Origin: Spirochaetes bacterium ADurb.BinA120
GTDB lineage: Bacteria; Spirochaetota; UBA4802; UBA5368
Assembly: GCA_002069125.1 (NCBI GenBank)
Contig: MVZN01000008.1
Coordinates: 5,643-69,642, forward strand
Direction: 5' to 3'
Length of the DNA stretch: 64,000 bases
Part shown: piece by piece, positions 17,855-59,829 of the stretch
How positions within the stretch are numbered: the stretch's first letter is position 1
Layout: each line of letters begins with the position of its first letter
Made by a program: the position numbers and the translations under genes
The notes under the pieces: model-generated
The model's database searches: none
Told to the model about the DNA's origin: nothing
Seen by the model: the letters and a program-made list of their open reading frames with translations, nothing else

Positions 17855-17857
17855 CGG

Positions 17858-18265: not shown

Positions 18266-18275
18266 CGTTCCGAAC

Positions 18276-18899: not shown

Positions 18900-19090
18900 G
18901 GCGCCATACCCGCGGTGATGTCCCCGTTTTCGAAGTCCGATGGCCGGCCGTAGCGCGGCCATGCCGGAACGACTTTGTATCAGCGGACGGGGGCTTTTGG
19001 CAAGATAAAAAACGGTTGCATTTATCGATTGGCTGGATGAGCGTTTCCGGAAGGATCGTGTTTCACAGCGGAGGAGCGAATACAAAGCGA

Positions 19091-35379: not shown

Positions 35380-35391
35380 CGTCCCGCCCGG

Positions 35392-36279
35392 TCATCCTTT
35401 TTTATCAAGTATAATGACGACCCTGCAGCGTTTCAAACTATTTCTGGTGGCCTGCGCCCCCAGGACCCTTCGCGCGTCCTTTTCGGATATCACCGGGCAC
35501 GCGTTCAAGCTTTTCAGGGCCACGGAATAATACGGGCGGTCCCCGGCCCTTTTTAGCGCTTTCGCCTCGTCCTCGGTATGGCAGTAGGATGCCATGCCGT
35601 TTTTGAGCGCATAGCGGCTGTCGATGAAGATCCGGCCGAAGATTTCCACCCCGTTCTCGTCATAGATGGACGGGAAAAGCATCGGTTCCAGCTTGAGCCC
35701 GCGGCCGTCCACGATAAGTCCGGTGTAATCGGTCTTGAGCGGAGTGTTGTCGATAACCGGCAGTTCCATGTCGGGGTAGTCCCAGGGGAGCGAAGCGATG
35801 ATTCCGCCGAAGCCCAGGCGCGCTTCGCAGGTGCTCGCGACAAACCCCGAGGGATGGCGCCTGAACCTGGTCTCGGCGGCGATCGTTTCGGAGAGGCGCC
35901 TCTGAACGGTATCGTCCGCCTGGAGGAGATCACCCAGCCGGCGATTGGGATCGACGCGGATGGTTTTCATGGCGCTGAGCAGGCTTTCTATGGAGGCCTC
36001 CTGCGCTCTGCGGCGTGTGTCTTTTCGCGCGCCGTTTATGCCAAGCTCCCTGCCGTCCTCGGGGTCCACCGGCAGGCCCGTGCCCGACACCTCAGCCTCG
36101 AAACGGCCGGTCGAGCTTATAAACGATCGGGTCCAGTTGATGCTTCCGTCGCCGTGTCTAACGATGAGGTCGGCCGCCTCCGCGGAAGCGCAAAGCAGGC
36201 ACAGCGCCGCGCCCGCAATGAAAGCCGCGGCCGTTATCCGTTTTCCAGCCCCGTGGCGGTTATGGTCTCGTTTCGGCAA
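35392..36279 (-). CDS. Secreted hypothetical protein
   Basis: Signal peptide (ITAAAFIAGAALCLLCASAEA); 295 aa; no confident family assignment. Confidence 0.45.
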   Translation of the reverse strand: MPKRDHNRHGAGKRITAAAFIAGAALCLLCASAEAADLIVRHGDGSINWTRSFISSTGRFEAEVSGTGLPVDPEDGRELGINGARKDTRRRAQEASIESLLSAMKTIRVDPNRRLGDLLQADDTVQRRLSETIAAETRFRRHPSGFVASTCEARLGFGGIIASLPWDYPDMELPVIDNTPLKTDYTGLIVDGRGLKLEPMLFPSIYDENGVEIFGRIFIDSRYALKNGMASYCHTEDEAKALKRAGDRPYYSVALKSLNACPVISEKDARRVLGAQATRNSLKRCRVVIILDKKG

Positions 36280-43989: not shown

Positions 43990-45753
43990 TCAGCATCCCC
44001 CGCGGACCAGCCGGAGCAGTTCGCGGGCGGCCTCCTCCGGTCCCCTCATCTCGAACCCGTTTATCCCCAGCCTGGTGCGCATCTGGCCGACGAACACTCC
44101 GCGCCCGAAGAAGGCGTTGAAGAACACCATGGCCAGACGGTCGTGGATCTCACGGTACTGGGGAGGTCCGAAGATGTTCGCGAAATAGGAGTGTACGATC
44201 CCGGTTGAGGTCGTGGTCCCCTTGCTCATCACCATCCCCTCGCGGAATATAGTGAACGCCCTGTCGACGTCGGAAAAGCGCTCGATGATCGGATGGTCGT
44301 CATCCACCTGCTCGTAGTTGTTCGCGTAGAGCACCATGTCGACACGGTGCCCTTTCATGACGATATCGCATGTGGTGACGGGGATGACGATACGCGCGTT
44401 GACCTGCGCGGGGCTCATTATGATGGAGCGGTCGATCTGACCGAAGGCGTACCCCGGCTGCAGGTCGTCAAGGCGGAGGAACGCCCCGATCTCCGTCCCG
44501 TAGCCGATGATGTCGCCCCTGTCGTCGATGTCCAGCGATCCCATGTCGTCGGCGATGATGGTCATGTCGCGTATATCGTCCCCGCCGATGGTCCTGAAGG
44601 CCTCGAGGGTCTCCGATTTTCCCGCCCCGGTATCTCCGATGATCAGGATGTTCTTCTGCGAGTCTCCGTCCATGACGATACGGACGAACGCGCCGTGAAA
44701 CGGGAGCCGCCCCGCCTGCATCATCCGTATGTTGTGGAGAGTCAACACCATCTTCTTCAGATAGCCGAAGTAGCCGAACTCGTCACGATTCGGTACCGCG
44801 GCGACCAGCATGCCGCCCTCCCTGTCCTCGTGGAACACCGTGGGGAACTCCGCCAGCGTATCGATGGCGTCTCCGGGCACGCCGAAAAGGTACAGTGCGT
44901 CGGGCTTTCGTGCAAGGTCTTCATCGGAGGCCATTTCGAAGAGATTACAGAGCGAAAAGCCCAGCTCGAAGAACCTGGCATGGAAGTAGATGAGTATCAG
45001 GAGCGGCCCCACCTTTGCCGGATAGCACAGCCATTCGTCGTCGACCGGATCGATTACCTCAAGGGGGTTGCGCTCTACGCGTATGAACTGCCCGGTGCGC
45101 TTGTTGATCGGCGGGTTCAGGATGAGCGGCGGATTGATGAGCACCTGCCGGATCACCCTTATGCGCGAAAGCTTCTCGTAGAGTCCGCCCGGAAGCTCGA
45201 GCGGCCGCGGAAGCGAGATGGCGGCTACCTGCGCGCCCGCCGTGAGCTGGCGGTAGATCCTGGGGTGAGTGCAGGTGAGGTTTTCGTCGATGTCCCGGTA
45301 AGCGCCGCGGACCAGGTGCGTCATCCGTTCGACGGTGTCGTTGAAGGTGCGGTACGGCCTCTTGTCCAGGATGTCTCCCTCGGAGTCGCATACGATGAAG
45401 CGGTCGTGCGAGCGCCAGAAGTTATACATCTGCTCGATGAGCCTGCTGAAATTCTGAACATCGCGCAGGAGAACCTCGGCCCCTTTAACGACGTTCGGTA
45501 CTACCGGTGCCGGAAGCTTGGCCAGGTGGCGCATCGTTTCCGCGAGTAGAGCAACCGCCCCTCCGTCTGGAAGCTCGTCAATGCCGGCGGCATCGAGGAT
45601 GGGCGAGCGCTTCTCGCGAAGCATCTCGAGGAAGCGGCCGAGTATTTCATGGAAAAGCTCGCTCGAAAAAAGCTCGTCAGCGGTTTCGCAGACTTTCCCC
45701 CGTGTGTAAATGATCACCTTGTTGTCCATTATTCTGAAACGCATCGTGTTCAT
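43990..45753 (-). CDS. Large protein with C-terminal HprK-like P-loop kinase domain
   Basis: ILIIGDTGAGKSETLEAF Walker A followed by ADD and downstream motifs parallel the HPr kinase C-domain (GDSGVGKSE). The N-terminal 380 aa or so are unrecognised. Confidence 0.55.
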   Translation of the reverse strand: MNTMRFRIMDNKVIIYTRGKVCETADELFSSELFHEILGRFLEMLREKRSPILDAAGIDELPDGGAVALLAETMRHLAKLPAPVVPNVVKGAEVLLRDVQNFSRLIEQMYNFWRSHDRFIVCDSEGDILDKRPYRTFNDTVERMTHLVRGAYRDIDENLTCTHPRIYRQLTAGAQVAAISLPRPLELPGGLYEKLSRIRVIRQVLINPPLILNPPINKRTGQFIRVERNPLEVIDPVDDEWLCYPAKVGPLLILIYFHARFFELGFSLCNLFEMASDEDLARKPDALYLFGVPGDAIDTLAEFPTVFHEDREGGMLVAAVPNRDEFGYFGYLKKMVLTLHNIRMMQAGRLPFHGAFVRIVMDGDSQKNILIIGDTGAGKSETLEAFRTIGGDDIRDMTIIADDMGSLDIDDRGDIIGYGTEIGAFLRLDDLQPGYAFGQIDRSIIMSPAQVNARIVIPVTTCDIVMKGHRVDMVLYANNYEQVDDDHPIIERFSDVDRAFTIFREGMVMSKGTTTSTGIVHSYFANIFGPPQYREIHDRLAMVFFNAFFGRGVFVGQMRTRLGINGFEMRGPEEAARELLRLVRGGC

Positions 45754-46856
45754 AGTTGTTCCTCCCTGTCGTCCTGTGATCGGGCCGTGTCGGGCGAAGT
45801 GCGCTCATTCGGGACCTGGATGTGCCGCCACAGGCCACGCGACCCCTGCCCAAGGCGCCAGAAGGCGGCGGCCTCGATATTTTTATCGCGGCAGAGCTTA
45901 AGTTTCATCCGGGTCGATTCAATGTCATCGTAGAAAACGCTTACTCTTACTTTTTCCTCGTATTCGAAATGGCAGCCCTTCTCGGGATTGTAGGATGGGC
46001 TTAGCTTTTTCGATTCGATCAGTTCGTCGATATGATGGTTGCGGAGCGCCCGGGCGAGGGTCCTGTCCTGCCAGGCCCTTCCGTACAGCGGAAGCCCCGC
46101 TACGAGTTTCCCGCCGGAGACCCTGGTCTTCGCGAACTCCAGTATCTCTTTGAGCCATATCACTGAGCTCACTGGTCCCGGGCCGCTGGCGCTCCAGTGC
46201 TGGTCGTATGCCATTATGATGACCCTGTCGGCGATGCCGGCTATCGCCCGGTAATCGTACGCGTCCGAAACGGATTTTCTGCGGGCGGGCACGGCGACGC
46301 TAAGCGTTTTCGAGGCCGGAAGGCCCTTTTTAAGCTCGCCCAGAAAATCGTGGAAATATTTCGCGTCGTCGGCCGGCACGCTCTCGAAGTCGATCTGCAC
46401 GCCGTCAAAGTTTTCCGCGGCTCGTACGATGTCGCCGGCGAGCCGTTTTCGATAGGGCAGGGACGGGTTTAGGCAGAAATGGGCGAGGGCCGGATTGGAG
46501 AGCTCCGTGATGACGATGTGCAAGCGCGCACGGGCGCGCAGGGCGCCTGGTAATACCGGCGGCGCGGGCACGGCCGCCAATACGCCCTTGGGGGTGATGG
46601 GAACTCCGAAATAACAGATATCGGTGAGAGGCTCCGTGCCTGTTAGCTCCTTCTCTTCCCCTTTCATGAGGTATCCCCAGAGCTCTTTGAAAACCAGCGG
46701 ACGCTCGAAAACCGTATTCCGCTCCTTTGCGTTCTCGATGGGATTCCCGGCAATGGGTTTCCGCCCGGATGAGGCGCTTCCCGCGCCGGCGGTGGAACAG
46801 GCCGATGACACAAGTATCAGGAGGGCCAGGGCGGCCTGTCGTAAAGGTGTGCTCAT
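45750..46856 (-). CDS. Glycoside hydrolase family 18 (chitinase-like/YaaH-like) lipoprotein
   Basis: Signal peptide plus lipobox (LILVSSACS) and the GH18 catalytic-region pattern (GVQIDFESV). ATGA overlap with the upstream kinase-domain gene. Confidence 0.6.
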   Translation of the reverse strand: MSTPLRQAALALLILVSSACSTAGAGSASSGRKPIAGNPIENAKERNTVFERPLVFKELWGYLMKGEEKELTGTEPLTDICYFGVPITPKGVLAAVPAPPVLPGALRARARLHIVITELSNPALAHFCLNPSLPYRKRLAGDIVRAAENFDGVQIDFESVPADDAKYFHDFLGELKKGLPASKTLSVAVPARRKSVSDAYDYRAIAGIADRVIIMAYDQHWSASGPGPVSSVIWLKEILEFAKTRVSGGKLVAGLPLYGRAWQDRTLARALRNHHIDELIESKKLSPSYNPEKGCHFEYEEKVRVSVFYDDIESTRMKLKLCRDKNIEAAAFWRLGQGSRGLWRHIQVPNERTSPDTARSQDDREEQL

Positions 46857-47187: not shown

Positions 47188-47550
47188 TCAGCTTTTGTCA
47201 AGCGTTTTAATTCTGGTCTCCAGGTCGCATTCCATAGTAAATACTATGACCCTCTCGCCGGTGACGGTGCTGATATCGGTGTGCATGCTGCGGCAGGCGC
47301 AGCCGGTGATTTCCGCGAGTATCGCCGAGAGCATGTCTCGCGCCTCCTCGATGAGCCTGATGCGCACCTTCTTGATCAGGTCAAGGCCTTCACCGCTACT
47401 GGTGAGCCGGCTTTCGGCGCGCGTCATGACCCCCTTCATCCTCACGATCACCATGTCTTCGATGATATAGGTGCGCGTCTCGATGGGGCCGCGCCCCATG
47501 TATTCCTTTTCGAACTTGATCAGCGCCTCGCTGATCTCCGCCTCGATCAT
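47188..47550 (-). CDS. DUF2294 family protein
   Basis: About 120-aa conserved pattern (EISEALIKFEKEYMGRGP...DISTVTGERVIVF). Start at the internal Met MIEAEIS. Confidence 0.5.
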   Translation of the reverse strand: MIEAEISEALIKFEKEYMGRGPIETRTYIIEDMVIVRMKGVMTRAESRLTSSGEGLDLIKKVRIRLIEEARDMLSAILAEITGCACRSMHTDISTVTGERVIVFTMECDLETRIKTLDKS

Positions 47551-47789
47551 GCCCCTGCTTTTGGTCTTCACGGCCCCGTTCCTGTGCCTCGTACGGCGCA
47601 AACCGCCGTCGATATTCTCCGATTCACTTAGCACATTCCCGCCCGCGCCGTCCAGTTATTTTCCTTCCGAGGTGAGATTTGGGATATTCCGGAACGGCCG
47701 TCCGTGCGCATTCCGGATTCGAAAAACACCGTGCGGCCGGATGATATTCGCGCCCCGGCTCTGATGTATACGATTGACGCGATCGCCTG

Positions 47790-48105
47790 TCCGGGAAGCC
47801 CTAATAATCGATATATATATGCCCATGAAAAATATTTTTAATCATAATAGTTCAACGATTTAAATGCTCCGCTCCGCCAGCTCGCCCCGCGGCGCCGTGT
47901 TCCATGTGTGCTTTACCGCTGACTACTAACACGGAGGCCGGTGTTCTGCAATATCTGATAATATATTTATCATATTATATTATATGCATATATTATAAGA
48001 TGTATAAAATAATATATTAAATATCCTAATATTGTATGATTAAGAAAAAATAATAAATCACGGCGCATTAGCATTAAAATAATATTGACTAATCCAATGC
48101 CGGGT
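47790..48105. promoter_or_regulatory. About 320-bp AT-rich island upstream of the Fdh-like/hydrogenase operon
   Basis: A stretch at roughly 15-25% GC inside a roughly 62% GC background, with many short A/T palindromes (atatgcatat at 47982-47991) and a TTGACT-16 nt-TACGGT promoter-like pair at 48084-48111. No ORF on either strand. Confidence 0.4.
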
Positions 48106-48309
48106 CTACGGTTGTCGCGTGATAGACGTGTGAGGCGCAACAATCACAAGGCCGCCCGCCACGGGTACCGTAAGCTCTGCTTTAGGTCTTGTCGGTTTGC
48201 GTACAGCCGTCCGCGGCGCTTATGGGCCTGTCTTGTTGAACGGGTCGTAATTGCGGGCGGCGCTGTGCGCGACCGACAACGGAAATTCTAATGCGTGGAG
48301 TGTTATGGT

Positions 48310-50316
48310 ATGAATCAGAAACCTGGCGTGTGCACCTTCTGCGGCACGGGTTGCGGCCATTTCATCGGCGTCGAAAACAACAGGATCGCGCGTGTCTATC
48401 CCTCCCAAAACCATCCCGTAAGCAAGGGGCGTCTTTGCGTTCGGGGCTGGAACATCCACGAACTCCTCGATACTCCCGATAGAATTAAAAAACCGCTGAT
48501 TCGTTCCGACGGCCCTTTCGTGGAGGCGTCCTGCGACGAGGCGGTGGGCCGACTAATTGACTCGTTGAAGAAGTACCCTCCGGAATCCATCGGCTTTCTC
48601 GCCTCGCCCCGCTCCTCCAACGAGGAGCAGTATCTTCTAATGAAGCTCGCCCGTTCGGTCTTCGGGACCAACAACATCTGCTTGGACAGCGAATCGGGCC
48701 ATCGCGCAAGCCTCAATGTTCTGCACGCGGGTACCGGTATGGCTGGAATGCTCGGCTCGATCGAGGAGATATGCGGGGCGGAATTCATCCTTGTAGCCGG
48801 GATAGACATCACCCGGCAGAACCCCATAATAGGAAGCGAGATCCACATGGCCGCGCGGGCGGGGGCCATGGTGGTGACCATGGACAGCCGGCGCACCCAG
48901 ATCGCCAGGCTATCGAAGAAATTTTTACAGGTGAGGCCCGGCGCAAACAAGCTTGCCGTCCTCGCCCTGGCTAAAACCATATATGAGGAAAATCTCCACG
49001 ACCCATCGTTCCTCGAAGCGCATACGGAAGGCTTCGAGGGGTTCCGAAGGGCTTTCGGAAAGCTATCCGAAAACGAATTATACGAAAAGACCGGCCTTAA
49101 GGCCGACGAGATAAAAACGGTCGCCCGCCATCTGGCCAGGGCGAAATCGGCGATGGTATTCTTCTCCTCCGGCATCTCGGGCCTCGATGAGGACACAATA
49201 GGGTATATCTACAATCTCTTTCTTCTGGCCGGAAAAATCGGAAAGGAGGGCTGCGGCGTAAATCCGATAGCCGGGCTCAACAACCTTCAGGGCGGCTACG
49301 ATATGGGGCTGGCCCCGGACCTCCTCACCGGATTCCAGCCGCTTGCCGACGCGGCGACGGCTAAAAAATTCGAAAAGGAGTGGGGGACGGCACTTCCCTC
49401 CTCACCGGGAAAGCCGATCTACCGATCGCTGGCGGACCAGGCATCGGAACTGAAGGCGCTTGTCGTGGTTGACCACGACGAGGGGATAGTGCGCTACGCC
49501 GACGCCATCAAAAAGCTCGACTTCGTGGCATACATAGGGGCCTTCAAGAACCCATTTGCGGAGTACGCTCATGTGGTGCTTCCAATCGCCACCTACGTAC
49601 AGGAGGACGCCACATTCACGAACGCGGAACGGCGCATACAGCTCTCAACGAAAAAGATCGAACCGGAAGACGGGCTGCTCCCCGGATGGAAACTGTATTC
49701 GATGATAGCCGCGAAGGCCGGCAGGGCATGGAAATACGCAAAGGTATCGGAGGTGATGGACGAGATCGCCCGGCTTACTCCTGCGTACGCCGGAGTTACG
49801 CACGCAAAGCTTGCCGGCGGTTTCGGCCTGCAGTGGCCTGTGGACGATAAAAACCCGGGCGGAACCAGGCGCTTCGACCTCGCCAAAGCAGGGCGAAAGC
49901 TCGCTTTTTACGGGGTGAGCGATGTGTTTGAGGCCCCATCGGCCGACGACCGGTTTCCATTCCTCCTCATGGTGGGCAAGGCGCAGCATTTCTGGCACCA
50001 GAACAACCTCATGAAAAAGACGCACATCCCCATGCGCGAATATAACGCGACACTGATGGATTATCCCGAAGGCTACGTCGAGATATGCCCGCAAAGCGCG
50101 AAGGAGATAGGGGTGCGCGACCGCTGGCCTGTGCGAGTGGTATCGCCTCACGGGGAGATGCGCGTGTCGGCTAGGGTTTCGGACGACGTGAGCCCCAATA
50201 CGGCCTATGCGCCCTACTTTGTACAGGAAATGATATCGCGTTTTTTGCTGGGGCACACCGAGGTTCTAAGGCAGGGAGAAGACGCAACGATTCCAGTAAG
50301 GATTGAGAAGGTATGA
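48310..50316 (+). CDS. Molybdopterin oxidoreductase, FdhF (formate dehydrogenase H)-like catalytic-type subunit lacking the Cys/Sec Mo ligand
   Basis: N-terminal 4Fe-4S motif CTFCGTGCG, MGD-binding regions and C-terminal Mo-bisPGD domain. Aligning the E. coli FdhF segment NNVDCCARVUHGPSVAGLHQSVG with NNICLDSESGHRASLNVLHAGTG puts Gly at the U140 position. There is no in-frame TGA. GTG 48295 is an alternative start. Confidence 0.75.
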   Translation: MNQKPGVCTFCGTGCGHFIGVENNRIARVYPSQNHPVSKGRLCVRGWNIHELLDTPDRIKKPLIRSDGPFVEASCDEAVGRLIDSLKKYPPESIGFLASPRSSNEEQYLLMKLARSVFGTNNICLDSESGHRASLNVLHAGTGMAGMLGSIEEICGAEFILVAGIDITRQNPIIGSEIHMAARAGAMVVTMDSRRTQIARLSKKFLQVRPGANKLAVLALAKTIYEENLHDPSFLEAHTEGFEGFRRAFGKLSENELYEKTGLKADEIKTVARHLARAKSAMVFFSSGISGLDEDTIGYIYNLFLLAGKIGKEGCGVNPIAGLNNLQGGYDMGLAPDLLTGFQPLADAATAKKFEKEWGTALPSSPGKPIYRSLADQASELKALVVVDHDEGIVRYADAIKKLDFVAYIGAFKNPFAEYAHVVLPIATYVQEDATFTNAERRIQLSTKKIEPEDGLLPGWKLYSMIAAKAGRAWKYAKVSEVMDEIARLTPAYAGVTHAKLAGGFGLQWPVDDKNPGGTRRFDLAKAGRKLAFYGVSDVFEAPSADDRFPFLLMVGKAQHFWHQNNLMKKTHIPMREYNATLMDYPEGYVEICPQSAKEIGVRDRWPVRVVSPHGEMRVSARVSDDVSPNTAYAPYFVQEMISRFLLGHTEVLRQGEDATIPVRIEKV

Positions 50317-51380
50317 CCATGTTCCTTATCAAGAAATCCGACGTCGGTAAAATTGCAGAGGAGCTCGCACGGGACCACCAGGTGTACGGCCCCATGATAG
50401 AGAAGGGCTCGGGACAGACCTTTTTCGACCGGGCGGACGATGTGTCCGAAATAAGCCTCTCGGCGCCCATCCCGTCGAATCCGCCCAAATCGGTCGTTTT
50501 TCCGCAGATGGAACGAGTCCTTGCCTACGAGTATGACAGGCCTAAAAATTCGGTAAAGATCGAGCCCGATTACAAGGTCGAGCCCAAGGCCCTTGTGGGG
50601 CTTCGTCCCTGCGACCTGGCGGGCATGTTATGCCTGGACCGCTTCTTTATGGGACAGGAATTCGTCGACGAGGTTTATCTCGCGCACCGCAAAAAGATGT
50701 TCATCGTCACCAACACCTGCGTCGCGCCGTTCAAGCAGTGCTTCTGCGTGTGCACGGACAGCGGCCCGGCGGCAAGCGAGGGCTATGACCTTAACCTCAC
50801 GGACTTAGGCGATGAGTTTCTGGTGGAGACCGGTTCCGAAAAGGGCGCAGTATTCGCGGCCGGGCTCGGCCTTGCGGCCGCCGACGACTCGCACCTGGCG
50901 AGGAAAAAGAAGATAGTGGACAAATCGATCTCTCTCTTCGAGGACATCGCGGTCGATTCAAAGGCCTGGATCTCGCGCGTGATGAACCGCGTAACCACCG
51001 GCTTCGTGAAGGAGGAGGTCTGGGAATACATCGGCGACCAGTGCTTCGAGTGCGGGGCCTGCTCCTTCGTGTGCCCGTCCTGCTCGTGCTTCAACATCGC
51101 CGACGTAACCAACCCGGAATGCGAGGGCTGCGCCGACCGTCTGCGCTCCTGGGATTCGTGCTCCTATGAGGGATATTCGCGCATGGCGGGCGGGCACAAT
51201 CCGCGAAAACCGGTCGAGGACCGGCGCAACAAGCGCTTTTTCTGCAAGCTGTCATATTCGCAGATGAAGAAATATCTCAGGCCGGGATGCGTGGGCTGCG
51301 GGCGCTGCGCCTGGGTGTGTCCCGGCGATATCGGCCTGCCGAACGTCGTGACCTATGTCAGAAGGGAAATTACGAGGTAG
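50313..51380 (+). CDS. Fe-S subunit, AsrA/HydB (sulfhydrogenase beta)-like
   Basis: Multiple Cys clusters (CFCVC; CFECGACSFVCPSCSC; CVGCGRCAWVCP). ATGA overlap with the upstream gene. Confidence 0.65.
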   Translation: MTMFLIKKSDVGKIAEELARDHQVYGPMIEKGSGQTFFDRADDVSEISLSAPIPSNPPKSVVFPQMERVLAYEYDRPKNSVKIEPDYKVEPKALVGLRPCDLAGMLCLDRFFMGQEFVDEVYLAHRKKMFIVTNTCVAPFKQCFCVCTDSGPAASEGYDLNLTDLGDEFLVETGSEKGAVFAAGLGLAAADDSHLARKKKIVDKSISLFEDIAVDSKAWISRVMNRVTTGFVKEEVWEYIGDQCFECGACSFVCPSCSCFNIADVTNPECEGCADRLRSWDSCSYEGYSRMAGGHNPRKPVEDRRNKRFFCKLSYSQMKKYLRPGCVGCGRCAWVCPGDIGLPNVVTYVRREITR

Positions 51381-51389
51381 GGGAATCCT

Positions 51390-52241
51390 ATGAGCCAGGT
51401 ACTGAACATCCAGGACGGTAAGATAGTCACCGTGCCCGAGGTCGCCACGATAGAGGAAATAAGGGACGAGATCCGCGAGGTCAAGACCTTCTACCTCTCG
51501 ATCGACAACAGGGAGATATGGAGCGGCTTCAAGTACAAATCGGGGCAGTTCATCATGCTGACGGTTTTCGGTTCGGGCGAGTTCGCCGTTTCGCTCCCGC
51601 CCAGCCCCGAAAACGACCGGTTTCACATAACGGTTCGGACCGTGGGCAAGGTGACGAGCGCCCTCCACGCCCTCAAGCCCGGCGACAAGGTGGGCATAAG
51701 AGGGCCGTTTGGAAACGGCTTTCCCTTCGAGGAGTTCAAGGGGAAAAACTTAGTGTACGTGGCGGGCGGCATAGGGCTCATCCCGCTTCGTTCGTCCATC
51801 GTCCATGCGCTCCAGCACAAGAAAGACTTTGGCAGGGTGCTGGTGCTGCACGGCGCCCGTACGCCCGACGACCTCATGTATAAGGAAAATCTTAAAGAGT
51901 GGCAGAGCTTCGAAGGCTTCGAGACCTACATCACCGTGGATGTCTCGACTCCGGGCTGGACGGGCGAGACAGGCTTCGTCCATACGCTTTTCGACAAGGC
52001 GAACCTCCCCATCGACAATACGGTCGCCTTCGTATGCGGTCCCCCGGTGATGTTCAATACGGTGATAGGGGAGCTCATGAAGCGGGGCCTTTCGGACGAA
52101 AACATATATTCAACACTCGAGCGGCACATGAAATGCGGAGTGGGAAAGTGCCAGCACTGCGCGGTCGGAAGGACCCTGGTCTGCACCGACGGGCCGGTGT
52201 ACACCTACCGGCAGATAAAGACCCTGGGCGAGGAGATATAG
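51390..52241 (+). CDS. FAD/NAD(P)-binding oxidoreductase with C-terminal 2Fe-2S, AsrB/HydG/PyrK-like
   Basis: FAD site (RFHITVRTVGKVT), NAD(P) site (VYVAGGIGLIPL) and C-terminal CxxxxCxxC (CGVGKCQHCAV). Confidence 0.7.
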   Translation: MSQVLNIQDGKIVTVPEVATIEEIRDEIREVKTFYLSIDNREIWSGFKYKSGQFIMLTVFGSGEFAVSLPPSPENDRFHITVRTVGKVTSALHALKPGDKVGIRGPFGNGFPFEEFKGKNLVYVAGGIGLIPLRSSIVHALQHKKDFGRVLVLHGARTPDDLMYKENLKEWQSFEGFETYITVDVSTPGWTGETGFVHTLFDKANLPIDNTVAFVCGPPVMFNTVIGELMKRGLSDENIYSTLERHMKCGVGKCQHCAVGRTLVCTDGPVYTYRQIKTLGEEI

Positions 52242-52262: not shown

Positions 52263-52778
52263 ATGAAGGAACAGGCGGTGAACATCGTGGACGACATCCG
52301 CAGCGCACTCTCGCGAAAGACCTGCATCGTGGGCGTGGGGAACACCCTGCTCGGCGATGATGGCGCGGGCGTGCTTCTCGTCGAGACGCTCAGGCGCGAC
52401 GGCGCGGGCGAACGCGTACACTTAGTCAACGCGGAGGATATCATCGAGAGTCATGCTTTCGAAATCGCGGAAGGCGACTGGGGCACCGTGATAGTGGTGG
52501 ACGCGGTGAGTTTCGGCGGAAGCCCCGGAGACGTAATGTTCGGGGACTTTTCTGAGACAGGCGATTTGCTGAACGATTTCTCGACGCATAAGCTTTCGCT
52601 CAGGCTTTCCGAGTCGATCTGGCGGCAAAGCGGAAAAAAGACCTTTCTCCTCGGCATCCAGCCGGAGGCCGTGGATTTCGGCGAGGGGCTCTCGGAGGCC
52701 GTGCGCAGGAGCGTCGATACGCTCGGCGGCATACTACTCGAAGCAGTTAAACAGCACCCCGAAGGAGCGTGTGTATGA
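52263..52778 (+). CDS. [NiFe]-hydrogenase maturation endopeptidase (HycI/HyaD family)
   Basis: GVGNTLLGDDGAGV motif and 171 aa. Confidence 0.8.
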   Translation: MKEQAVNIVDDIRSALSRKTCIVGVGNTLLGDDGAGVLLVETLRRDGAGERVHLVNAEDIIESHAFEIAEGDWGTVIVVDAVSFGGSPGDVMFGDFSETGDLLNDFSTHKLSLRLSESIWRQSGKKTFLLGIQPEAVDFGEGLSEAVRRSVDTLGGILLEAVKQHPEGACV

Positions 52779-54634
52779 GTGACCTTTATGGAAAACTGAT
52801 TCTCGCGATGGCGATACTCCTCTGTTCGGCGGTCGTTGTGCCGTTTATCGCCGAAAAACGCAAGCTGGCGGGCTGGCTCAACTTCATCTTCGTTGCGGTG
52901 GCGGGCGCCATCCTCCTTTCGATCAGCTACAGCGTGATATTCGTGAAGTCCCTTCCGTCGCGGCTCGTTTCGGTGGGCCCTCTGGATATCTACTTTCTGC
53001 TGGACGGCTTTTCAGGGTTTTTCCTGGGGATAATTTCGCTCATGGCGATCGTAAGCGCGTTCTATTCGATAGAATACATGGAGCATTACGGCGATTACGG
53101 CCTCAGGAGCTACTACGCCAATTATCCAATTTTCGTACTGGGCATGGCGGGCATCGTTACGGTCGACGATCTTACTACGGGCTTTTCCATCGCATGGCAG
53201 GCGATGACCATTACGAGCTATTTTCTCGTGCGCTTCGAACATCGAAAAAAAGAGATCGTAAAGGCCGCCAACAAGTACCTCGTCCTCATGGAGCTTGCAT
53301 GGCTCTTCATAGTGATCGCCGCCCTCGCGGCGGGAAGCTCCATGGGCGATTCGGTGCACTCGGTCACCCGCCTCATCGGCGAGACCGGGGGCGCGCTTCC
53401 CTATCTCATCTACGGACTCGTCTTCCTGGGGTTCGGCTTTAAGGCCGCGGTCTTTCCGTTCGGACAGATGTGGCTGCCGGACGCGCACTCCATCGCCCCT
53501 TCGCCCATAAGCGCGCTCCTTTCGGGGGTGATGATAAAGACCGGCGTCTATGGGATCATCCGATCGTTTTTCTGGATGGTGCCGCACTCCGATACCTTTC
53601 ACTTCAGCGGGGCCTTCTGGGGCGCGCTCATCGCCTCCTTCGGCGTGGTCACGCTCTTTATCGGCACGGTGCAGTCCATGAAGCAGAGCCAGTCGAAGCG
53701 GCTGCTGGCTTATTCCTCGATAGGGCAGGTGGGCTATATCATCTTCGGAATCGGCGCCGCCCTCTTCATGGTAAACGCCGAGAGCGCCGCGCTTAAAATG
53801 CTCGGCCTCATAGCGCTCGTCGGGGTGGTGTATCACATACTCAATCACGCGGTGTTCAAGGGGCTGCTCTTTCTTACAAGCGGCAGCGTGCTCTACAGCA
53901 CCGGGACCAAGGACCTCAACAGGTTAGGCGGGCTTATAAACCTCATGCCGGTCACCGCGTTTGTCGCCGGCATAGCCTCCCTGTCCATCTCGGGGGTCCC
54001 TCCGTTCAGCGGTTTCGTGAGCAAATGGACGCTTGTGTCCACTTCGCTTCTTGCCGGAAGCGAGGTGCTGTTCCTTGTCATCTTCGGCATCGTGGCGCTC
54101 TTTACGAGCGCGGTGACGCTTGCGTGTTATGTGAAATTTTTTGGCATGACCTTCACCTCGGCGGGGGCCGAGTGGGGGGTGGGCAGGGAGGTCAGGGAGG
54201 TCCCCGCGGGCATGCTTATCCCCAAGCTCTTTCTTACGGCGCTGTGCCTGCTCCAGGGGCTCATCCCCTTCTTCTACTTCCAGACCATAATAGGCATATT
54301 CGCGGGTTCCGGGGGCTCCCTCATTTCGGCGGCTTTCAGGAACCTGAACGTGCAGGGCCACGTATTCAACTCGGCCATGGGCGTGTCGGTGGGAATTCCG
54401 GGGCTTTCCGCCGTCTCGTCGATCGCGGTTCCCGCGGTGCTTCTTGCGGTTTTCGCGGCGGCGTTCGTCGTCGTAGCTTTTTTAAGAAAGTCCGGCGGAT
54501 CGAAGGAACGCGAGGTCCCGACATGGCTCTGCGGTTATCAGGACCTGCACGATAAAAACAGGTACCGCGACAAGAGCATGTTCGCGGCGCTAAAAAACCT
54601 TCTGTATTGGACCGGCGGAAACGTAAAGGAATAA
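52775..54634 (+). CDS. Hydrogenase membrane subunit, HycC/HyfB (NuoL/antiporter-like) family
   Basis: About 14 TM helices with the NuoL/MrpA-like core. The ATG at 52775 has a GGAG RBS and overlaps the protease stop. Confidence 0.8.
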   Translation: MSDLYGKLILAMAILLCSAVVVPFIAEKRKLAGWLNFIFVAVAGAILLSISYSVIFVKSLPSRLVSVGPLDIYFLLDGFSGFFLGIISLMAIVSAFYSIEYMEHYGDYGLRSYYANYPIFVLGMAGIVTVDDLTTGFSIAWQAMTITSYFLVRFEHRKKEIVKAANKYLVLMELAWLFIVIAALAAGSSMGDSVHSVTRLIGETGGALPYLIYGLVFLGFGFKAAVFPFGQMWLPDAHSIAPSPISALLSGVMIKTGVYGIIRSFFWMVPHSDTFHFSGAFWGALIASFGVVTLFIGTVQSMKQSQSKRLLAYSSIGQVGYIIFGIGAALFMVNAESAALKMLGLIALVGVVYHILNHAVFKGLLFLTSGSVLYSTGTKDLNRLGGLINLMPVTAFVAGIASLSISGVPPFSGFVSKWTLVSTSLLAGSEVLFLVIFGIVALFTSAVTLACYVKFFGMTFTSAGAEWGVGREVREVPAGMLIPKLFLTALCLLQGLIPFFYFQTIIGIFAGSGGSLISAAFRNLNVQGHVFNSAMGVSVGIPGLSAVSSIAVPAVLLAVFAAAFVVVAFLRKSGGSKEREVPTWLCGYQDLHDKNRYRDKSMFAALKNLLYWTGGNVKE

Positions 54635-54665: not shown

Positions 54666-56339
54666 ATGCCAGGCATTGAAGAGATCAAAAACGGCTTGAA
54701 GAAGGGTTTTAAGGACGCCGTCGTCTCGGTCGAGGAGCAGAACCCGACGCGGATGTTCGTTGATATAAAAAGCGCCAAGGTGCGCGATGTTTCCAACGCG
54801 ATCGTCGCGATGGGCGGGCGCTATCTTGTAAGCGTGGGCTACGACAATATCGCGCGTGACGGCACGCTGGGGATGATCCACACCTTCGGCTTCGACCGCG
54901 ACGGCATTTATCTGGCCCTTCGCACGTCGGTGCCCGAATCGAAGCCCGAGATGGACTCCATAACGCCGGATATTCCAAACGCCGGCTGGTCCGAGCGGGA
55001 ATATATGGACCTGTTGGGGATGAGGTTTTCCGGGCACCCCAAACCGAAGAGGCTCGTTCTTGCCGACGACTGGCCCGAGGGCGTGCATCCCCTTCGAAAG
55101 GACATCCCCTGGAACCTCATGCCGCCGGCGGCGGAGGACGTCGCCTACCAACTCGACGAGTGCCCCGAGGGCTGCAGTATAGTCCCGCTCGGGCCGTATC
55201 ATCCCACCCTGCACGAGCCGGAGCACTTCGCCATCTACGTCGATGGGGAGACAGTAAAGGGGTGCGATTACCGCGGTTTTATGACGCACCGCGGAATCGA
55301 AAAGCTGTGCCAGACGCAGCTTACGTACAATGAGGTGCCGTTCGTCGCGGAGCGCATCTGCGGCATCTGCGGCTCGGTCCACGCCACCAGCTATTCGCAG
55401 GCGGTTGAGCTTGCGGGCGGCATAAAAATTTCCCGCAGGGCCGAGTACATCCGCACCATAATGCTCGAGATCGAGCGCATACACTCGCACCTATTGTGGC
55501 TTGGGGTCGCAGGCCACCTCATTGGTTTCGACACGGTCTTCATGCAGTCGTGGCGCATTCGCGAGCCCGTCATGTGGCTCGGAGAGAGGATCACCGGAAA
55601 CAGGAAGACCTATGGGATGATCGTTATCGGCGGAGTGCGCCGGGACATTACGGACGAAATGAAAGACGATATACGGAATGTGATCGGGACGATCGAAAAG
55701 GAGCTTCTGACCGTTCAGAAGGCGATACAGGGCGACACGGCGATTCACAGGCGAACAAGGGGCGTCGGTTACATCTCCACCGATGATACGAAGCTCTGGA
55801 GCCTGGTAGGCCCGGTCGCCAGGGCGCGGAACGTGGACATCGACGTTCGCCGCGACTACCCGTACGCCGCCTACGATGAGATGAAGTTCGACGTTCCGGT
55901 CTTCGATTCAAACGACGTGTGGGCCACCGTGCTGGTTCGCCTGGTCGAGACCTTCGAGGCGATCAAGATCATACGCCAGTGCCTGGACAAAATGCCGAAC
56001 GACGGCCCGGTTCTTACCGAGCTCGATGCGCCCATCCCGGCGCTGAAGCACGGCCTGGCGGCGGTGGAGGCCCCGCGCGGCGAGGTGGTGCACTATGTCA
56101 TCACCGGCGAAAAGAACGCCCCCGAGCGCTGGCGGGTGCGCGCCCCTACCTATCCCAATCTCCAGGGGGTCCCGCTCATGCTTTTGAACAACCAGCTCGC
56201 CGACGTGCCGATCATCATCGGGAGCATAGACCCATGCTTTTCGTGCACCGACCGGATGGAGGTAGTGGACCTGAGATCGGGTGCGGCGAAGATCGCCTCG
56301 CAGGTCGAGCTCGAAGAGCTCTCACGGAACAAAAGGTAG
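54666..56339 (+). CDS. Group-4 [NiFe]-hydrogenase large subunit, fused NuoC-NuoD type (HycE-like)
   Basis: N-terminal NuoC-like domain, Ni-Fe site cysteines RICGICGSVH and DPCFSCTDR, and a C-terminal extension consistent with HycI-type processing. Confidence 0.85.
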   Translation: MPGIEEIKNGLKKGFKDAVVSVEEQNPTRMFVDIKSAKVRDVSNAIVAMGGRYLVSVGYDNIARDGTLGMIHTFGFDRDGIYLALRTSVPESKPEMDSITPDIPNAGWSEREYMDLLGMRFSGHPKPKRLVLADDWPEGVHPLRKDIPWNLMPPAAEDVAYQLDECPEGCSIVPLGPYHPTLHEPEHFAIYVDGETVKGCDYRGFMTHRGIEKLCQTQLTYNEVPFVAERICGICGSVHATSYSQAVELAGGIKISRRAEYIRTIMLEIERIHSHLLWLGVAGHLIGFDTVFMQSWRIREPVMWLGERITGNRKTYGMIVIGGVRRDITDEMKDDIRNVIGTIEKELLTVQKAIQGDTAIHRRTRGVGYISTDDTKLWSLVGPVARARNVDIDVRRDYPYAAYDEMKFDVPVFDSNDVWATVLVRLVETFEAIKIIRQCLDKMPNDGPVLTELDAPIPALKHGLAAVEAPRGEVVHYVITGEKNAPERWRVRAPTYPNLQGVPLMLLNNQLADVPIIIGSIDPCFSCTDRMEVVDLRSGAAKIASQVELEELSRNKR

Positions 56340-56349
56340 AGGAAAGACC

Positions 56350-57249
56350 ATGGATATCCTGACAGCCGTGATCAACGCGTTGATTTTCCTGGCGCTGGCC
56401 CCGTTTTTCGAGGGTGTCATACGAAGGCTTTACGCCAGGGTGCAGTCCCGAAAGGGGCCGCCGCTCATTCAGCCCTATCTCGATCTCCTTAAGCTTCTGG
56501 GCAAGGAGACGCTTTCGGCCGGAAACTGGGCCTTCAGGATCGCACCGATGATGGCGCTGGCGTCCATAATTACGGTGGTGTCGATAATGCCCCTCGGCTA
56601 CAGGGCGGGATACCTGACCCAATACGGCGACATCATCACGGTCATATATCTGCTCATGCTCGGCGGGGTGTCGGTGCTTCTGGGGGCGCTCTCCAGCAAA
56701 AACACATACGCCATGTTAGGGGCGAGCCGCGAGATGGTGACCATGATAATGATCGAGCCGGTCCTGGCCATGACCCTTATATTAGGCGCGCTGAAGGCGA
56801 AAAGCCTTGCGATCGACGCGAGCCTTTCGAGCTCCCTTAACGGCGCTTACGGCATTTCGATGGTGCTCATGCTCGTCGTTTTTCTGATGGCGCTCCAGGC
56901 CTTTGTGGCCAGGCAGCCCTTCGATATTGCCGAGGCGGAGGTCGAGATTATGGAGGGCCCGTTTATCGAATACAGCGGCCCGGGGCTGGCGCTCTTCAAG
57001 TATTACATGATGATTAAGCAGATGTTCTACGCGGCGCTTTTCGCTGCGGTGTTCGTTCCGCTGGTCAACACCGGCTATTATATCGTGGATGTGGCGGTCC
57101 AGCTTGTCGAGATTCTGGCGGTCTTCGTGCTGATCTCGCTCCTCGGCTCGACCAACCCGCGCTTGCGCATAGACCAGGCGGTTAAGTATTATGCCGTGCT
57201 AATATTCGCTTCGCTCGCGGCCGTGGGGCTTACGGCGTACGGAATTTAG
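56350..57249 (+). CDS. Hydrogenase membrane subunit HycD/NuoH-like
   Basis: Polytopic NuoH-family membrane protein with RKGPPLIQPYLDLLKLL. GAGGA RBS. Confidence 0.8.
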   Translation: MDILTAVINALIFLALAPFFEGVIRRLYARVQSRKGPPLIQPYLDLLKLLGKETLSAGNWAFRIAPMMALASIITVVSIMPLGYRAGYLTQYGDIITVIYLLMLGGVSVLLGALSSKNTYAMLGASREMVTMIMIEPVLAMTLILGALKAKSLAIDASLSSSLNGAYGISMVLMLVVFLMALQAFVARQPFDIAEAEVEIMEGPFIEYSGPGLALFKYYMMIKQMFYAALFAAVFVPLVNTGYYIVDVAVQLVEILAVFVLISLLGSTNPRLRIDQAVKYYAVLIFASLAAVGLTAYGI

Positions 57250-57390: not shown

Positions 57391-57936
57391 GTGTGGCTGA
57401 CAAGTAAGATAAAACAGGTATTCATGGTGGCCAAACCCGGAGTGGTGACGCTTCAATATCCTTTCGAGCCGCGCCCGGCTCCGGAGAATTTTCGGGGCCA
57501 GCCCTACTGGGACCATCACAAGTGCATTGGATGCGGCGGCTGTGCGGCCCACTGTCCGGCGCGCACCATACTTGTGCGGGACCTTTGCCAGGAGCTTCGA
57601 GTGATGGTCTACGACGGCTCCCGATGCACCTACTGCGGAAGGTGCGCCGACGTGTGTCCCGAGGACGCCATCACCATGACGGCAAGCTACGAGCTGGCTA
57701 CCGGCAGCAAAGAGGACGTAAACGAGACCATGGAGCTCTTTATGGCGACCTGTCAGCGATGCGGCCGTTGTTACGACCACGAGATCACCAACGCGATCGA
57801 TCGCATGTCGAGGATAGGGTTCAAGTACGACAGCCTGGAGATGAGGGCGGTGGTGCCGGTGAGCTCCGAGCAGTTCGACATGAAGCTGTATGAAAAAACC
57901 GAAAAAATCAAAAGGCCGGAAAAGGCGGGAGAATAG
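57391..57936 (+). CDS. Hydrogenase Fe-S subunit HycF/NuoI-like (two 4Fe-4S)
   Basis: CIGCGGCAAHCP and CTYCGRCADVCP ferredoxin motifs plus a further CQRCGRC. GTG start with an AAGGAG RBS. Confidence 0.8.
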   Translation: MWLTSKIKQVFMVAKPGVVTLQYPFEPRPAPENFRGQPYWDHHKCIGCGGCAAHCPARTILVRDLCQELRVMVYDGSRCTYCGRCADVCPEDAITMTASYELATGSKEDVNETMELFMATCQRCGRCYDHEITNAIDRMSRIGFKYDSLEMRAVVPVSSEQFDMKLYEKTEKIKRPEKAGE

Positions 57937-57938: not shown

Positions 57939-58469
57939 ATGCTTGCCAACCTGATCAAAAAGGCGTTTCCCAGATCCCTGTGGGTTTATCATTGCAACTC
58001 GGGAGCGTGCAACGGCTGCGACATCGAGATCCTGAACGTGCTGACCCCTTATTACGATATCGAGCGTTTCGGCATGAAGCTTGTGGGCTCGCCCCGGCAC
58101 GCCGATGTCATGCTCATTTCCGGCGCCGTGACGAGACCGACTCTTCCGATAGTCAAGAAGGCCTATGAAGCGATTCCCGCCCCGAAACTTGTCTTCGGAG
58201 TTGGTTCGTGCGCCGTGGGCGGGGGCTGCTGGTTCGACTGCTACAATGTTACGGGCGGCGCGGACAAGGCCGTGCCGATCGATTATTACATTCCCGGCTG
58301 CCCGCCGCGTCCGGAGGCGATTATCTACGGGGTGGCGCTCGCGCTTGGACTTGTCGAAAAGAAGGTCGCCCCCATAGAGCTCAAGCAGATGGAGTTTCCG
58401 ATCGACATGTACGAGCGGAACAAGGCCTGGGAAGAGCGCAATGTCATATACGAGTTGATTAAAGATTAA
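57939..58469 (+). CDS. Group-4 [NiFe]-hydrogenase small subunit HycG/NuoB-like
   Basis: NuoB-family cysteines (CNGCD; GSCAVGGG; CPPRP). Confidence 0.85.
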   Translation: MLANLIKKAFPRSLWVYHCNSGACNGCDIEILNVLTPYYDIERFGMKLVGSPRHADVMLISGAVTRPTLPIVKKAYEAIPAPKLVFGVGSCAVGGGCWFDCYNVTGGADKAVPIDYYIPGCPPRPEAIIYGVALALGLVEKKVAPIELKQMEFPIDMYERNKAWEERNVIYELIKD

Positions 58470-58604: not shown

Positions 58605-59006
58605 ATGGCAAAAAAGATACTCTTGGTTGATGACGACAGCGACCTGGTGGCCAGCCTTTCGCAGGCGCTTACAATGAATGGATATGAGGTGTCGGTTGCC
58701 TACAGCGGCGCCGAGGGCCTCGCGAGACTTCTTGAGGTAAGGCCGGACCTCATGATTCTCGACGTTATGATGGAGACCGACACCGCCGGGTTCGAAATGA
58801 CCTATCAGATCCGCGGTACGCGGCCCACGTCCAAATATCGAGACGTGAAGGACACCCCAATAATCATGCTGACAGCCATAAACCAGGTCACCAATTCCAG
58901 GTTCTCGCTAAACGAAGGCCAGAGCTTTCTTCCCGGCGTGAACGATTTCCTCACCAAACCGGTGAAGATCGACGAACTACTCGATAAGGTGAAAAAGCAG
59001 ATTTAG
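58605..59006 (+). CDS. Single-domain response regulator receiver (CheY-like)
   Basis: KILLVDDD...DLMILDVMM...KP receiver signature; 133 aa; no output domain. Confidence 0.8.
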   Translation: MAKKILLVDDDSDLVASLSQALTMNGYEVSVAYSGAEGLARLLEVRPDLMILDVMMETDTAGFEMTYQIRGTRPTSKYRDVKDTPIIMLTAINQVTNSRFSLNEGQSFLPGVNDFLTKPVKIDELLDKVKKQI

Positions 59007-59073
59007 CGGAAAAATGCCTTGCCCTCTGGGCGCCTCTGGTTTCACGATACTACACGTTATGGATAATCGTATA

Positions 59074-59103
59074 AGGGGATATCATTGGATATCCCCCTTT
59101 TCT
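59074..59103 (+). terminator. Candidate intrinsic terminator (ggggatatc-attg-gatatcccc followed by CTTTTCT)
   Basis: Perfect 9-bp stem with a 4-nt loop, about 70 nt after the receiver stop, followed by a T-rich tract. Confidence 0.45.
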
Positions 59104-59118
59104 ATGGCGGGCTATTCG

Positions 59119-59829
59119 ATGAAAATAAGGCATCTGGTATTCATCCTGCTTGTGGCGGTTGTCGCGGGCTCCCTGTACAACAGCCAGCGGCTGTACCACT
59201 GGTACCTCGCCGCGTATTACCAGCGCTTCCTCGGTGAAGATCGGGAAAAATCCATAGAAAGGGCGCGCTCGCTTTACAGGGATGAGCGCTATGAAGAGCT
59301 CGATGCCTATACCGGACGCATGAGGGTCCTCTACCCGGACAATTCCGACCTGCGCCGCCTGAAAGGGTTCGCGATGATTAAAACCGGCCGCGAATCGGAG
59401 GGGGCGCACATGGTTATATCCTCGTTGAGAAAGAACGAGGCCCTTCTTTCGGTTGCCAGTGCCATCGAAATATTGTTCAAGGAAGGGGAGTACGCGGACC
59501 TCGACGACATCATCTCCAGCCACGGGACCATGGGCGACCCGTATCTTCAATATATTCACGGCGTTTCGCTTTATCATGTCAAAAAATACGCTGAGGCGGA
59601 GCGGCGCCTTGCAGGAGCGTTGAGCGCCGGGAAACAGGATTACGACACGCTGTACTACCTTGGTCTGGCCCGTGAGAAAAACGGCAGAACGGTCGAGGCG
59701 CTCGCCGCGATCGAAAAGGCCTATGCGATAGACCCTATACGCCCCGAGGCCCGAAAGGCCCTGGTTCGTCTCTATCGAGTGACAAAACAATACGACAGGG
59801 CGGAAAGAATTCCGCGGAGGACACCATGA
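59119..59829 (+). CDS. TPR-repeat protein with N-terminal membrane anchor
   Basis: Hydrophobic N-terminus (LVFILLVAVVAGSL) and TPR repeats (YYLGLAREKNGRTVEAL). Start uncertain (59059, 59104 or 59119). The longer antisense ORF 59050..59790 was rejected. Confidence 0.5.
   Translation: MKIRHLVFILLVAVVAGSLYNSQRLYHWYLAAYYQRFLGEDREKSIERARSLYRDERYEELDAYTGRMRVLYPDNSDLRRLKGFAMIKTGRESEGAHMVISSLRKNEALLSVASAIEILFKEGEYADLDDIISSHGTMGDPYLQYIHGVSLYHVKKYAEAERRLAGALSAGKQDYDTLYYLGLAREKNGRTVEALAAIEKAYAIDPIRPEARKALVRLYRVTKQYDRAERIPRRTP

Follow-up and report, generated by a model that had tools for sequence, protein, structure and literature searches.

An Fdh-like subunit without a molybdenum ligand

The window analyzed here, a stretch of 64,000 nucleotides from contig MVZN01000008.1 of Spirochaetes bacterium ADurb.BinA120, contains an operon for a [NiFe] hydrogenase headed by a gene for a formate dehydrogenase (FDH)-like subunit of 668 amino acids (aa). 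We refer to this subunit as FdhL, a label coined here for a degenerate paralogue of the FdhF type. The gene is held by an uninterrupted open reading frame (ORF) at 48295-50316 of the forward strand (+), on which all features described below lie unless stated otherwise. Public gene calls and homologues indicate the ATG at 48310 as the likely start, giving a coding region of 48310-50316. The protein folds like FdhF/FdhA, with a [4Fe-4S] domain at its N terminus, and lacks a ligand for molybdenum (Mo).

At the position of the selenocysteine (Sec) or cysteine that coordinates Mo in these enzymes (U140 of FdhF), FdhL carries a glycine. This residue, Gly130, is encoded by GGC (codon 130, 48697-48699) and lies inside NNICLDSESGHRASLNV, within ...GTNNICLDSESGHRASLNVLHAGTG.... 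The original prediction, made from the sequence alone, had placed a glycine there on the basis of flanking residues that align column for column, and every alignment that we made agrees with it. In HMMER comparisons with solved FDHs, Gly130 was aligned to the Sec of an F420-dependent FDH (9t1s_L) and to the Cys of 7bkb_D, with the NN, H, S and G flanks in register and without gaps. The same register was obtained against E. coli FdhF by MAFFT and by profile alignments; the length of this reference sequence and its residues U140, H141 and R333 were checked. Cys124 (the C of NNICLD) was considered as a substitute Mo ligand and rejected. It aligns with Asp134 of FdhF, six residues upstream of the ligand, and its position is occupied by Ser in most FdhL relatives, so that realigning it with the ligand is not possible; no alignment put a Cys at that position. 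A frame check detected no in-frame TGA, TAA or TAG in the FdhL gene. Read-through at a Sec codon, which had been excluded for the lack of an in-frame TGA, can thus be rejected, both here and in 80 homologous loci, where no in-frame stop was found either.

Other residues of the FdhF active site have been replaced as well. Of the two whose conservation the original prediction had left to be checked, His141 is retained as His131 (48700-48702) and the catalytic Arg333 is lost, with Ala321 (49270-49272) in its place. Arg45 (48442-48444) aligns with Lys44 of FdhF, which connects the pterin to the FeS cluster, and both Gln335 and Val338 have become Leu. The CxxCxxxC...C motif that provides the ligands of the [4Fe-4S] cluster is present (Cys8, Cys11, Cys15 and Cys43, at 48331-33, 48340-42, 48352-54 and 48436-38, respectively).

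The overall architecture is still that of an FDH. FdhL matches the Pfam domains Molybdop_Fe4S4, Molybdopterin and Molydop_binding, and its best family match is Fdh-alpha (TIGR01591), although with 450.9 bits it scores below the cutoff of 666.25. The AlphaFold2 (AF2) model (predicted local distance difference test [pLDDT] of 83.7 and predicted template-modeling score [pTM] of 0.89) shows the four-domain FDH fold, with template-modeling (TM) scores of 0.87-0.90 to FdhF and RaFDH (1fdi, 1aa6 and 9ktl_A) in Foldseek searches. NuoG appeared at rank 43 (TM of 0.68-0.70) and arsenite oxidase at rank 47.

The domains of FdhL have not diverged to the same degree. The match to Molybdopterin (PF00384) gave 111 bits, compared to 233-337 bits for bona fide FDHs, and that to Molydop_binding (PF01568) gave 40 bits over profile positions 25-78 of 110, compared to 96-99 bits over the full length. 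For the FeS domain (Molybdop_Fe4S4, PF04879) the values were much closer, with 50 bits in FdhL and 56-71 bits in bona fide FDHs. These scores, two- to threefold lower in the pterin-binding domains, suggest that the latter have decayed.

Conservation and selection across the clade

To the window we added 80 species-level loci, obtained by a scan with one genome per species, for a clade set of 81 sequences. These loci are labeled mostly as metagenome-assembled genomes (MAGs) of Spirochaetota/Leptospirales, with some from Desulfobacterota and Acidobacteriota/Aminicenantes. The ligand position was Gly in 77 of the 81 and Trp in the other four, and nowhere Cys or Sec, so that the replacement is a property of the whole clade. 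At a finer level, 118 of 120 clusters formed at 90% identity (in a set with at least 54% identity) had Gly. The position of Arg333 was taken by Thr, Ala, Pro, Ser or Val and by Arg in none (0/81), and that of Lys44 by Arg without exception (81/81), whereas all 65 bona fide FDHs compared have Lys. At the position of His141 we found His (70 sequences), Gln (9) or Tyr (2). The four cysteines of the [4Fe-4S] cluster were invariant (81/81). The Trp-bearing sequences (L055, L057, L072 and L073, labeled Acidobacteriota or Aminicenantes) have Gln or Tyr in place of His141; three of them keep the rest of the operon, and the locus of the fourth, L057, ends after the HycI gene.

At least 10 contigs, which come from several samples, carry a protein identical to FdhL; source names place it and its relatives in Spirochaetota. 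The ratio of nonsynonymous to synonymous substitutions (dN/dS) of FdhL against its closest relatives was 0.07-0.09, equal to that of the adjacent beta subunit gene (see below) and inside the span of values for the hydrogenase subunits, which argues that this is a working gene. The loss of the ligand is therefore a conserved and selected feature, far beyond what chance or sequencing error would produce.

For a wider view of the fold, we defined 70 FDH-invariant columns (at least 90% conserved among the 65 bona fide FDHs). The FdhL clade has kept 41 of them and lost 21 (K44, W80, Q121, D134, C136, R138, C140, H181, P203, A212, G305, R333, Q335, V338, G402, T435, D478, I481, R581, N662 and K679), and the members of the family form a graded series of decay. 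The distribution of conservation within the clade is uneven, as 42% of the columns of the FeS domain are at least 95% conserved, compared to 10-16% elsewhere. This domain is thus the most conserved part of the protein, and it also bears invariant residues that are specific to the clade.

More distant relatives (P0125, P0127, P0131, P0137 and P0146, with 33-38% identity) likewise lack the Cys and have Tyr, Ala, Gln or Gly instead. His141 is often lost among them, although they share the FdhL-beta-gamma(-HycI-hydrogenase) context. With both the ligand residue and His141 variable, no active-site chemistry is conserved across the family. Among 140 informative representatives at 50% identity nearest to the query (proteins P0121-P0269), the ligand Cys was absent in 64; Arg333 is missing as well from 55 of these, and Lys44 is replaced by Arg in 32. 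Judging from these alignments, Cys-less FdhA-like proteins are common, and the change of Lys44 to Arg co-varies with the loss of the ligand. Some of them, such as P0151, P0168 and P0186 (~890 aa, with NuoG/HoxU-like N termini), pass the TIGR01591 cutoff despite having no Cys.

The hydrogenase operon and its relatives

The gene that follows FdhL (50319-51380, ~353 aa) encodes an FeS subunit similar to the beta subunit of sulfhydrogenase I (SHI) and to AsrA (Pfam Fer4_22; NCBIfam AsrA, ShyB and HydB), and its only solved relative is the beta subunit of P. furiosus SHI (PDB 9nez_B, E=1.7e-38). Next comes an SHI-gamma/AsrB-like subunit of 283 aa (51390-52241) with FAD, NAD(P)H and [2Fe-2S] sites (Pfam FAD_binding_6, NAD_binding_1 and DHODB_Fe-S_bind). 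Its translation shows GGIGLIP and C-terminal Cys motifs, and the closest solved structure is SHI gamma (PDB 9nez_C, E=1.8e-56). The stop codon of FdhL (TGA, 50314-50316) overlaps an ATG at 50313 that is an alternative start for beta, the second ATG being at 50319 (GTATGACCATG); this overlap suggests that FdhL and beta may be translationally coupled.

The hydrogenase proper begins with a maturation endopeptidase of the HycI type (52263-52778; Pfam HycI; TIGR00072 with 99.9 bits versus a cutoff of 47.45) and a single antiporter-like membrane subunit similar to HycC/HyfB (52775-54634; Pfam Proton_antipo_M; best NCBIfam match, hydrogenase 4 subunit B). The [NiFe] large subunit (54666-56339) is a NuoC-NuoD fusion of the HycE type, matching E. 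coli HycE (PDB 7z0s_E) with E=1.6e-119. Its Ni-binding motifs RICGICGSVH (L1) and DPCFSCTDR (L2) are intact, and the second is followed by a C-terminal tail of 27 aa for cleavage. Then come a HycD/NuoH-like membrane subunit (56350-57249; Pfam NADHdh), a HycF/NuoI-like 2x[4Fe-4S] subunit (57391-57936; two Pfam Fer4 stretches) and a HycG/NuoB-like small subunit (57939-58469; Pfam Oxidored_q6). There is no room for more genes between 52263 and 58469, and that interval has a single Proton_antipo_M gene and likewise a single gene for a 2x[4Fe-4S] protein. Pfam scans of the operon genes detected no HycB-like gene, and beta and gamma stand in that place.

The last gene encodes a stand-alone receiver (REC) protein, CheY-like (58605-59006; Pfam Response_reg), in which all phospho-acceptor residues (DD, D, T and K) are present. 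It closes the operon in nearly all loci that are long enough (L002-L080), in Spirochaetota, Desulfobacterota and Acidobacteriota, with 56-90% identity, and within the window no cognate kinase adjoins it. One public contig with an identical FdhL (L088) has 15 extra bases between HycG and the REC gene compared to the window.

By tblastn, this gene order with FdhL at the head was shared by essentially every locus long enough to show it, across phyla, and the beta and gamma genes were adjacent in all of them apart from one missing beta match (L023). Over long evolutionary distances FdhL is the least conserved subunit (43-60% identity, versus 60-85% for the others). Four Desulfobacterota loci (L007, L008, L009 and L024, labeled delta proteobacterium, Proteobacteria or Thermodesulfobacteriota) have the antiporter-like and NuoH-like genes upstream of FdhL and not between HycI and HycE. 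These membrane genes are only 40-48% identical to those of the window, which suggests that the membrane module has been exchanged there.

The nearest bona fide FDH, P0132 (locus L086), has kept the active site (Lys44, Cys-His and Arg-Gly-Gln). Its gene is followed by a Fer4_22 beta-type gene, and a gamma-type gene, an NTP_transf_3 gene, which we read as MobA-like, and a Y1 transposase gene are located close upstream. As this FDH also has beta and gamma neighbors, the association of FDH, beta and gamma predates the loss of the active site, and an NAD(P)-linked, stand-alone FDH-beta-gamma unit may have been the ancestor of the module.

With the formate hydrogenlyase of E. coli (FHL-1, FdhF-HycBCDEFG; PDB 7z0s/7z0t) the operon shares equivalents of HycC, D, E, F and G, the HycI peptidase and an FdhF-fold protein with one [4Fe-4S] cluster. 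It differs by the absence of HycB and the addition of SHI-type beta and gamma subunits, and where FdhF has Sec140, His141, Arg333 and Lys44, FdhL has Gly, His, Ala and Arg. In the E. coli complex electrons pass from FdhF (cluster A1) through HycB (B1-B4) to HycF, HycG and the NiFe site (PMC9474812). The beta (FeS) and gamma (FAD, [2Fe-2S] and NAD(P)H) subunits are homologous to those of P. furiosus SHI (PDB 9nez). However, SHI is a cytoplasmic enzyme of group 3b, whereas in the window the same module is joined to an Fdh-like protein and to a hydrogenase of group 4 that is membrane-bound.

Similar gene clusters have been described before. Takano et al. (2026, Front Microbiol, PMC13582414) found in silico that the Cys/Sec for Mo is missing from roughly half of the Fdh sequences that group 4b hydrogenase clusters contain and that such clusters co-occur with SHI-gamma and SHI-beta homologues. 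In their AlphaFold models the FeS network has one branch each for the large subunit, for SHI-gamma and for the Fdh-like protein, and they suggested bifurcation or confurcation with an unidentified substrate. The operon of the window resembles these clusters, which also come from uncultured bacteria of several phyla, in three core features: an Fdh-like protein without a Mo-coordinating Cys/Sec, SHI-beta and SHI-gamma homologues adjoining it and a membrane-bound [NiFe] hydrogenase of group 4 whose large subunit has both CxxC motifs. Such clusters have thus been reported before, if only in silico and briefly. Unlike the typical cluster of that study, which has a HyfE-like subunit, several antiporters and several ferredoxins, the window operon has one antiporter, one HycF-type ferredoxin, no HyfE and no HycB. 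Those clusters belong to group 4b, and the large subunit of the window best matches the group 4a HycE, among solved structures only. Spirochaet* and Aminicenantes do not appear in the main text of the article (PMC13582414).

A second precedent is the "enigmatic" group 4 hydrogenase region of Saganbacteria RX5A, whose function was left undetermined (Matheus Carnevali et al. 2019, PMC6349859, Supplementary Note 5). By its description, it is similar in having an FdhH-like protein with a single [4Fe-4S], not classed as an FDH by phylogeny, asrA-like and asrB-like genes and a group 4 hydrogenase. It also contains a cooF-like gene and two Mrp-type antiporters, which the window operon does not have. 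The words "cysteine" and "selenocysteine" are not found in the supplementary text on this region (PMC6349859). Literature searches on the hydrogenases of Aminicenantes/Saccharicenans and on SHI cryo-electron microscopy (cryo-EM) returned nothing relevant, and a paper on the Methylocystis group 4f hydrogenase proved to be unrelated.

Possible functions of FdhL in the complex

Most of the functional information on FdhL comes from this operon context, which lay outside the original prediction. We give an even chance to the explanation that FdhL is a catalytically dead, FeS-bearing relic that serves as a subunit of an NAD(P)H-coupled, ion-translocating [NiFe] hydrogenase. It would then be an obligatory part of a conserved nine-protein complex, a compact membrane-bound hydrogenase of the HycCDEFG type that does without HycB and would carry instead the beta/gamma diaphorase module of the soluble SHI. 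Gamma, with its FAD and 2Fe-2S, would exchange electrons with NAD(P)H, and beta would pass them to HycF, HycG and finally the NiFe site in HycE. The FdhL cluster could lie on this path or form a side branch attached to beta. The membrane arm, presumably ion-translocating, would pay for the uphill step from NAD(P)H to H2, and in the reverse direction H2 might reduce NAD(P)+ with energy conservation. FdhL itself would act as an FeS-carrying scaffold without formate oxidation, as does the molybdopterin-fold relic of NuoG/NDUFS1.

The relationship between FdhF and NDUFS1 and the retention of the N7 cluster in the molybdopterin-fold relic of NuoG/NDUFS1 provide a precedent (PMC9474812). By analogy with NuoG/NDUFS1 (Nqo3), FdhL may represent a noncatalytic molybdopterin-oxidoreductase fold kept as an FeS-bearing domain in an enzyme of the complex I superfamily with an NAD(P)H-oxidizing module. 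There are differences, since NuoG has an extra N-terminal domain for a 2Fe-2S and two 4Fe-4S clusters and FdhL starts directly at a single Molybdop_Fe4S4; NuoG partners with NuoE and NuoF (FMN), and FdhL with a PyrK/SHI-gamma-type FAD protein. FdhL is also far from belonging to the NuoG family (TIGR01973, 127.7 versus a cutoff of 470). If the analogy holds, the relic in FdhL would have arisen independently.

The original prediction had named two ways in which a subunit without a protein ligand might be explained, a cofactor lost altogether as in NuoG or one held without such a ligand as in arsenite oxidase. The sequences lean to the first, with decayed pterin domains, a tolerated Trp and the FeS domain as the best conserved part. 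In particular, a metal at the site would hardly be compatible with the Trp that four species have in place of the ligand. The co-occurrence of Cys/Sec-less Fdh-like genes with SHI-beta/gamma (PMC13582414) fits NAD(P)H as a replacement redox partner.

Several points weigh against the explanation of FdhL as a relic in an NAD(P)H-coupled hydrogenase. NAD(P)H-driven H2 evolution is thermodynamically unfavorable. The whole fold of 668 aa is kept under strong purifying selection, and the FdhL model is closer to FDHs than to NuoG. Within the clade, the loop that once held the ligand, S-[DE]-x-G-H, is well conserved, as is a segment of domain IV, WHxNNxM...IPxREY, which could mean that something is still bound there. 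Several of the lost columns are presumed, from the FdhF structure and the Pfam domain definition, to lie in dinucleotide- or pterin-binding motifs. The association with beta and gamma is older than the loss of the site, and these subunits need not have replaced formate. Finally, a third branch in the published AlphaFold models terminates at the Fdh-like protein (PMC13582414), where a pure relic would be a dead end in the complex. A literature search for a published list of the FdhF residues in contact with the molybdopterin guanine dinucleotide (MGD) returned only a paper on Lys44 (PMC12176258).

The strongest alternative, possible but clearly less probable, is that FdhL binds a Mo- or tungsten (W)-bis-pyranopterin without a protein ligand and turns over a substrate other than formate, in a three-terminal bifurcating or confurcating complex. 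The retention of the full fold under strong selection would be expected in that case, as would the conservation within the clade of the Gly130-His131 loop, the NPxxGxNNLQG motif and the domain IV segment. Gly is kept in 95% of the species, which is not free drift. Confurcation would also overcome the unfavorable thermodynamics of H2 production from NAD(P)H, and the three-way FeS network of the published models reaches the Fdh-like protein (PMC13582414). However, no candidate catalytic residue is common to the wider family, in which the ligand position is Gly, Trp (as in the four species above), Ala, Tyr or Gln and His141 is lost in distant members. The FDH-invariant columns replaced in the pterin and dinucleotide domains, the loss of the C-terminal Lys679 region and the two- to threefold drop of the Pfam scores for domains II-IV argue in the same direction, as does the replacement of Lys44, the relay from the pterin to the cluster. 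No gene for molybdenum cofactor (Moco) biosynthesis adjoins FdhL in the loci whose gene tables were read, while the one bona fide FDH locus read has the NTP_transf_3 gene. Among the ~50 ORFs of the window that were scanned there were no Moco, selenocysteine or Hyp genes, a point on which 64 kb are uninformative.

Arsenite oxidase (AioA), in which Ala takes the place of the ligand and Mo is held without one from the protein, would be a parallel for a site of this kind. The two proteins have in common a small noncoordinating residue and a dimethyl sulfoxide (DMSO) reductase-family fold, but AioA has kept the full cofactor-binding site, whereas the pterin-binding domains of FdhL appear degraded. 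FdhL scores well below the AioA family cutoff (TIGR02693, 62.4 versus 359). AioA has a [3Fe-4S] cluster; FdhL, by contrast, keeps four Cys ligands.

The fully specified form of this alternative is rather unlikely. It would place a ligand-free Mo/W center of FdhL within a membrane-bound, ion-translocating hydrogenase with H+/H2, NAD(P)+/NAD(P)H and a substrate X as the terminals for bifurcation or confurcation. To our knowledge, chemiosmotic and bifurcating energy coupling have not been shown in combination for any enzyme.

It is highly improbable that FdhL is still an FDH in an ordinary formate hydrogenlyase, with Glu128, Ser127/129 or a free sulfido or oxo ligand compensating for the missing residue. 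Such an enzyme would agree with Fdh-alpha as the best family match, FDHs as the best structural matches, the His141 retained in the window protein, the HycE type of the hydrogenase and the name "formate dehydrogenase major subunit" given to relatives in public records. The family score is nevertheless well under the cutoff, and HycB, the docking partner of FdhF in FHL, is absent. Besides, Sec/Cys, Arg333, Lys44, Gln335 and Val338 are jointly lost in every member. In E. coli FDH-H, K44R retains the cluster with ~7% of the activity left, and Lys44 substitutions other than Arg abolish activity (PMC12176258). The replacement of all five residues supports the original proposal that FdhL would not oxidize formate, and the loss of the last four strengthens what the ligand alone had suggested. 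An artifact, such as a wrong assembly or reading frame, or a decaying pseudogene that lost its function not long ago, considered only because the sequence is metagenome-assembled, can be dismissed, since the ligand loss recurs in 80 species-level genomes, the frame is uninterrupted, the dN/dS is low and identical proteins lie on other contigs; we found nothing in favor of it.

Proteins of the FdhL type are annotated as formate dehydrogenase and the operon resembles that of formate hydrogenlyase, so that formate-driven H2 production is liable to be wrongly inferred for MAGs of anaerobic Spirochaetota, Aminicenantes and Desulfobacterota. In at least 80 species-level genomes of several phyla almost every gene of the operon is conserved, and the operon probably stands for an uncharacterized means by which the pool of NAD(P)H is connected with H2 at the membrane; the group 4 classes of HydDB include no NAD(P)H-coupled type. 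If FdhL is a relic, the complex would be an independent parallel to the gain by complex I of an NADH module and a dead molybdopterin domain. If it carries a ligand-free Mo/W center, it would be a pterin enzyme of a new kind, as part of a membrane complex that bifurcates electrons.

Around the operon, a gene of the MpsC family (47188-47634, reverse strand [-]) is divergent upstream of FdhL, a location that it has only in the closest relatives (L001 and L003-L005). The intergenic region between them (47635-48309, ~675 bp) is unusually long, with an AT-rich stretch around 47900-48020, and an Rfam scan of the window gave no matches. Downstream, a gene for a TPR protein (59014-59829), also found after the REC gene in L004-L006, is followed by an ADP-forming acetyl-CoA synthetase-like gene (59826-61220; CoA_binding and Succ_CoA_lig), and the two fit a fermentative lifestyle. 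Elsewhere in the window, ORFs of 244-587 aa without a Pfam match (E<=1e-5) are located within 16055-18953, 34645-36279 and 43990-45753; one of them, of 587 aa, adjoins a GH18 chitinase-like gene at 45750-46856.

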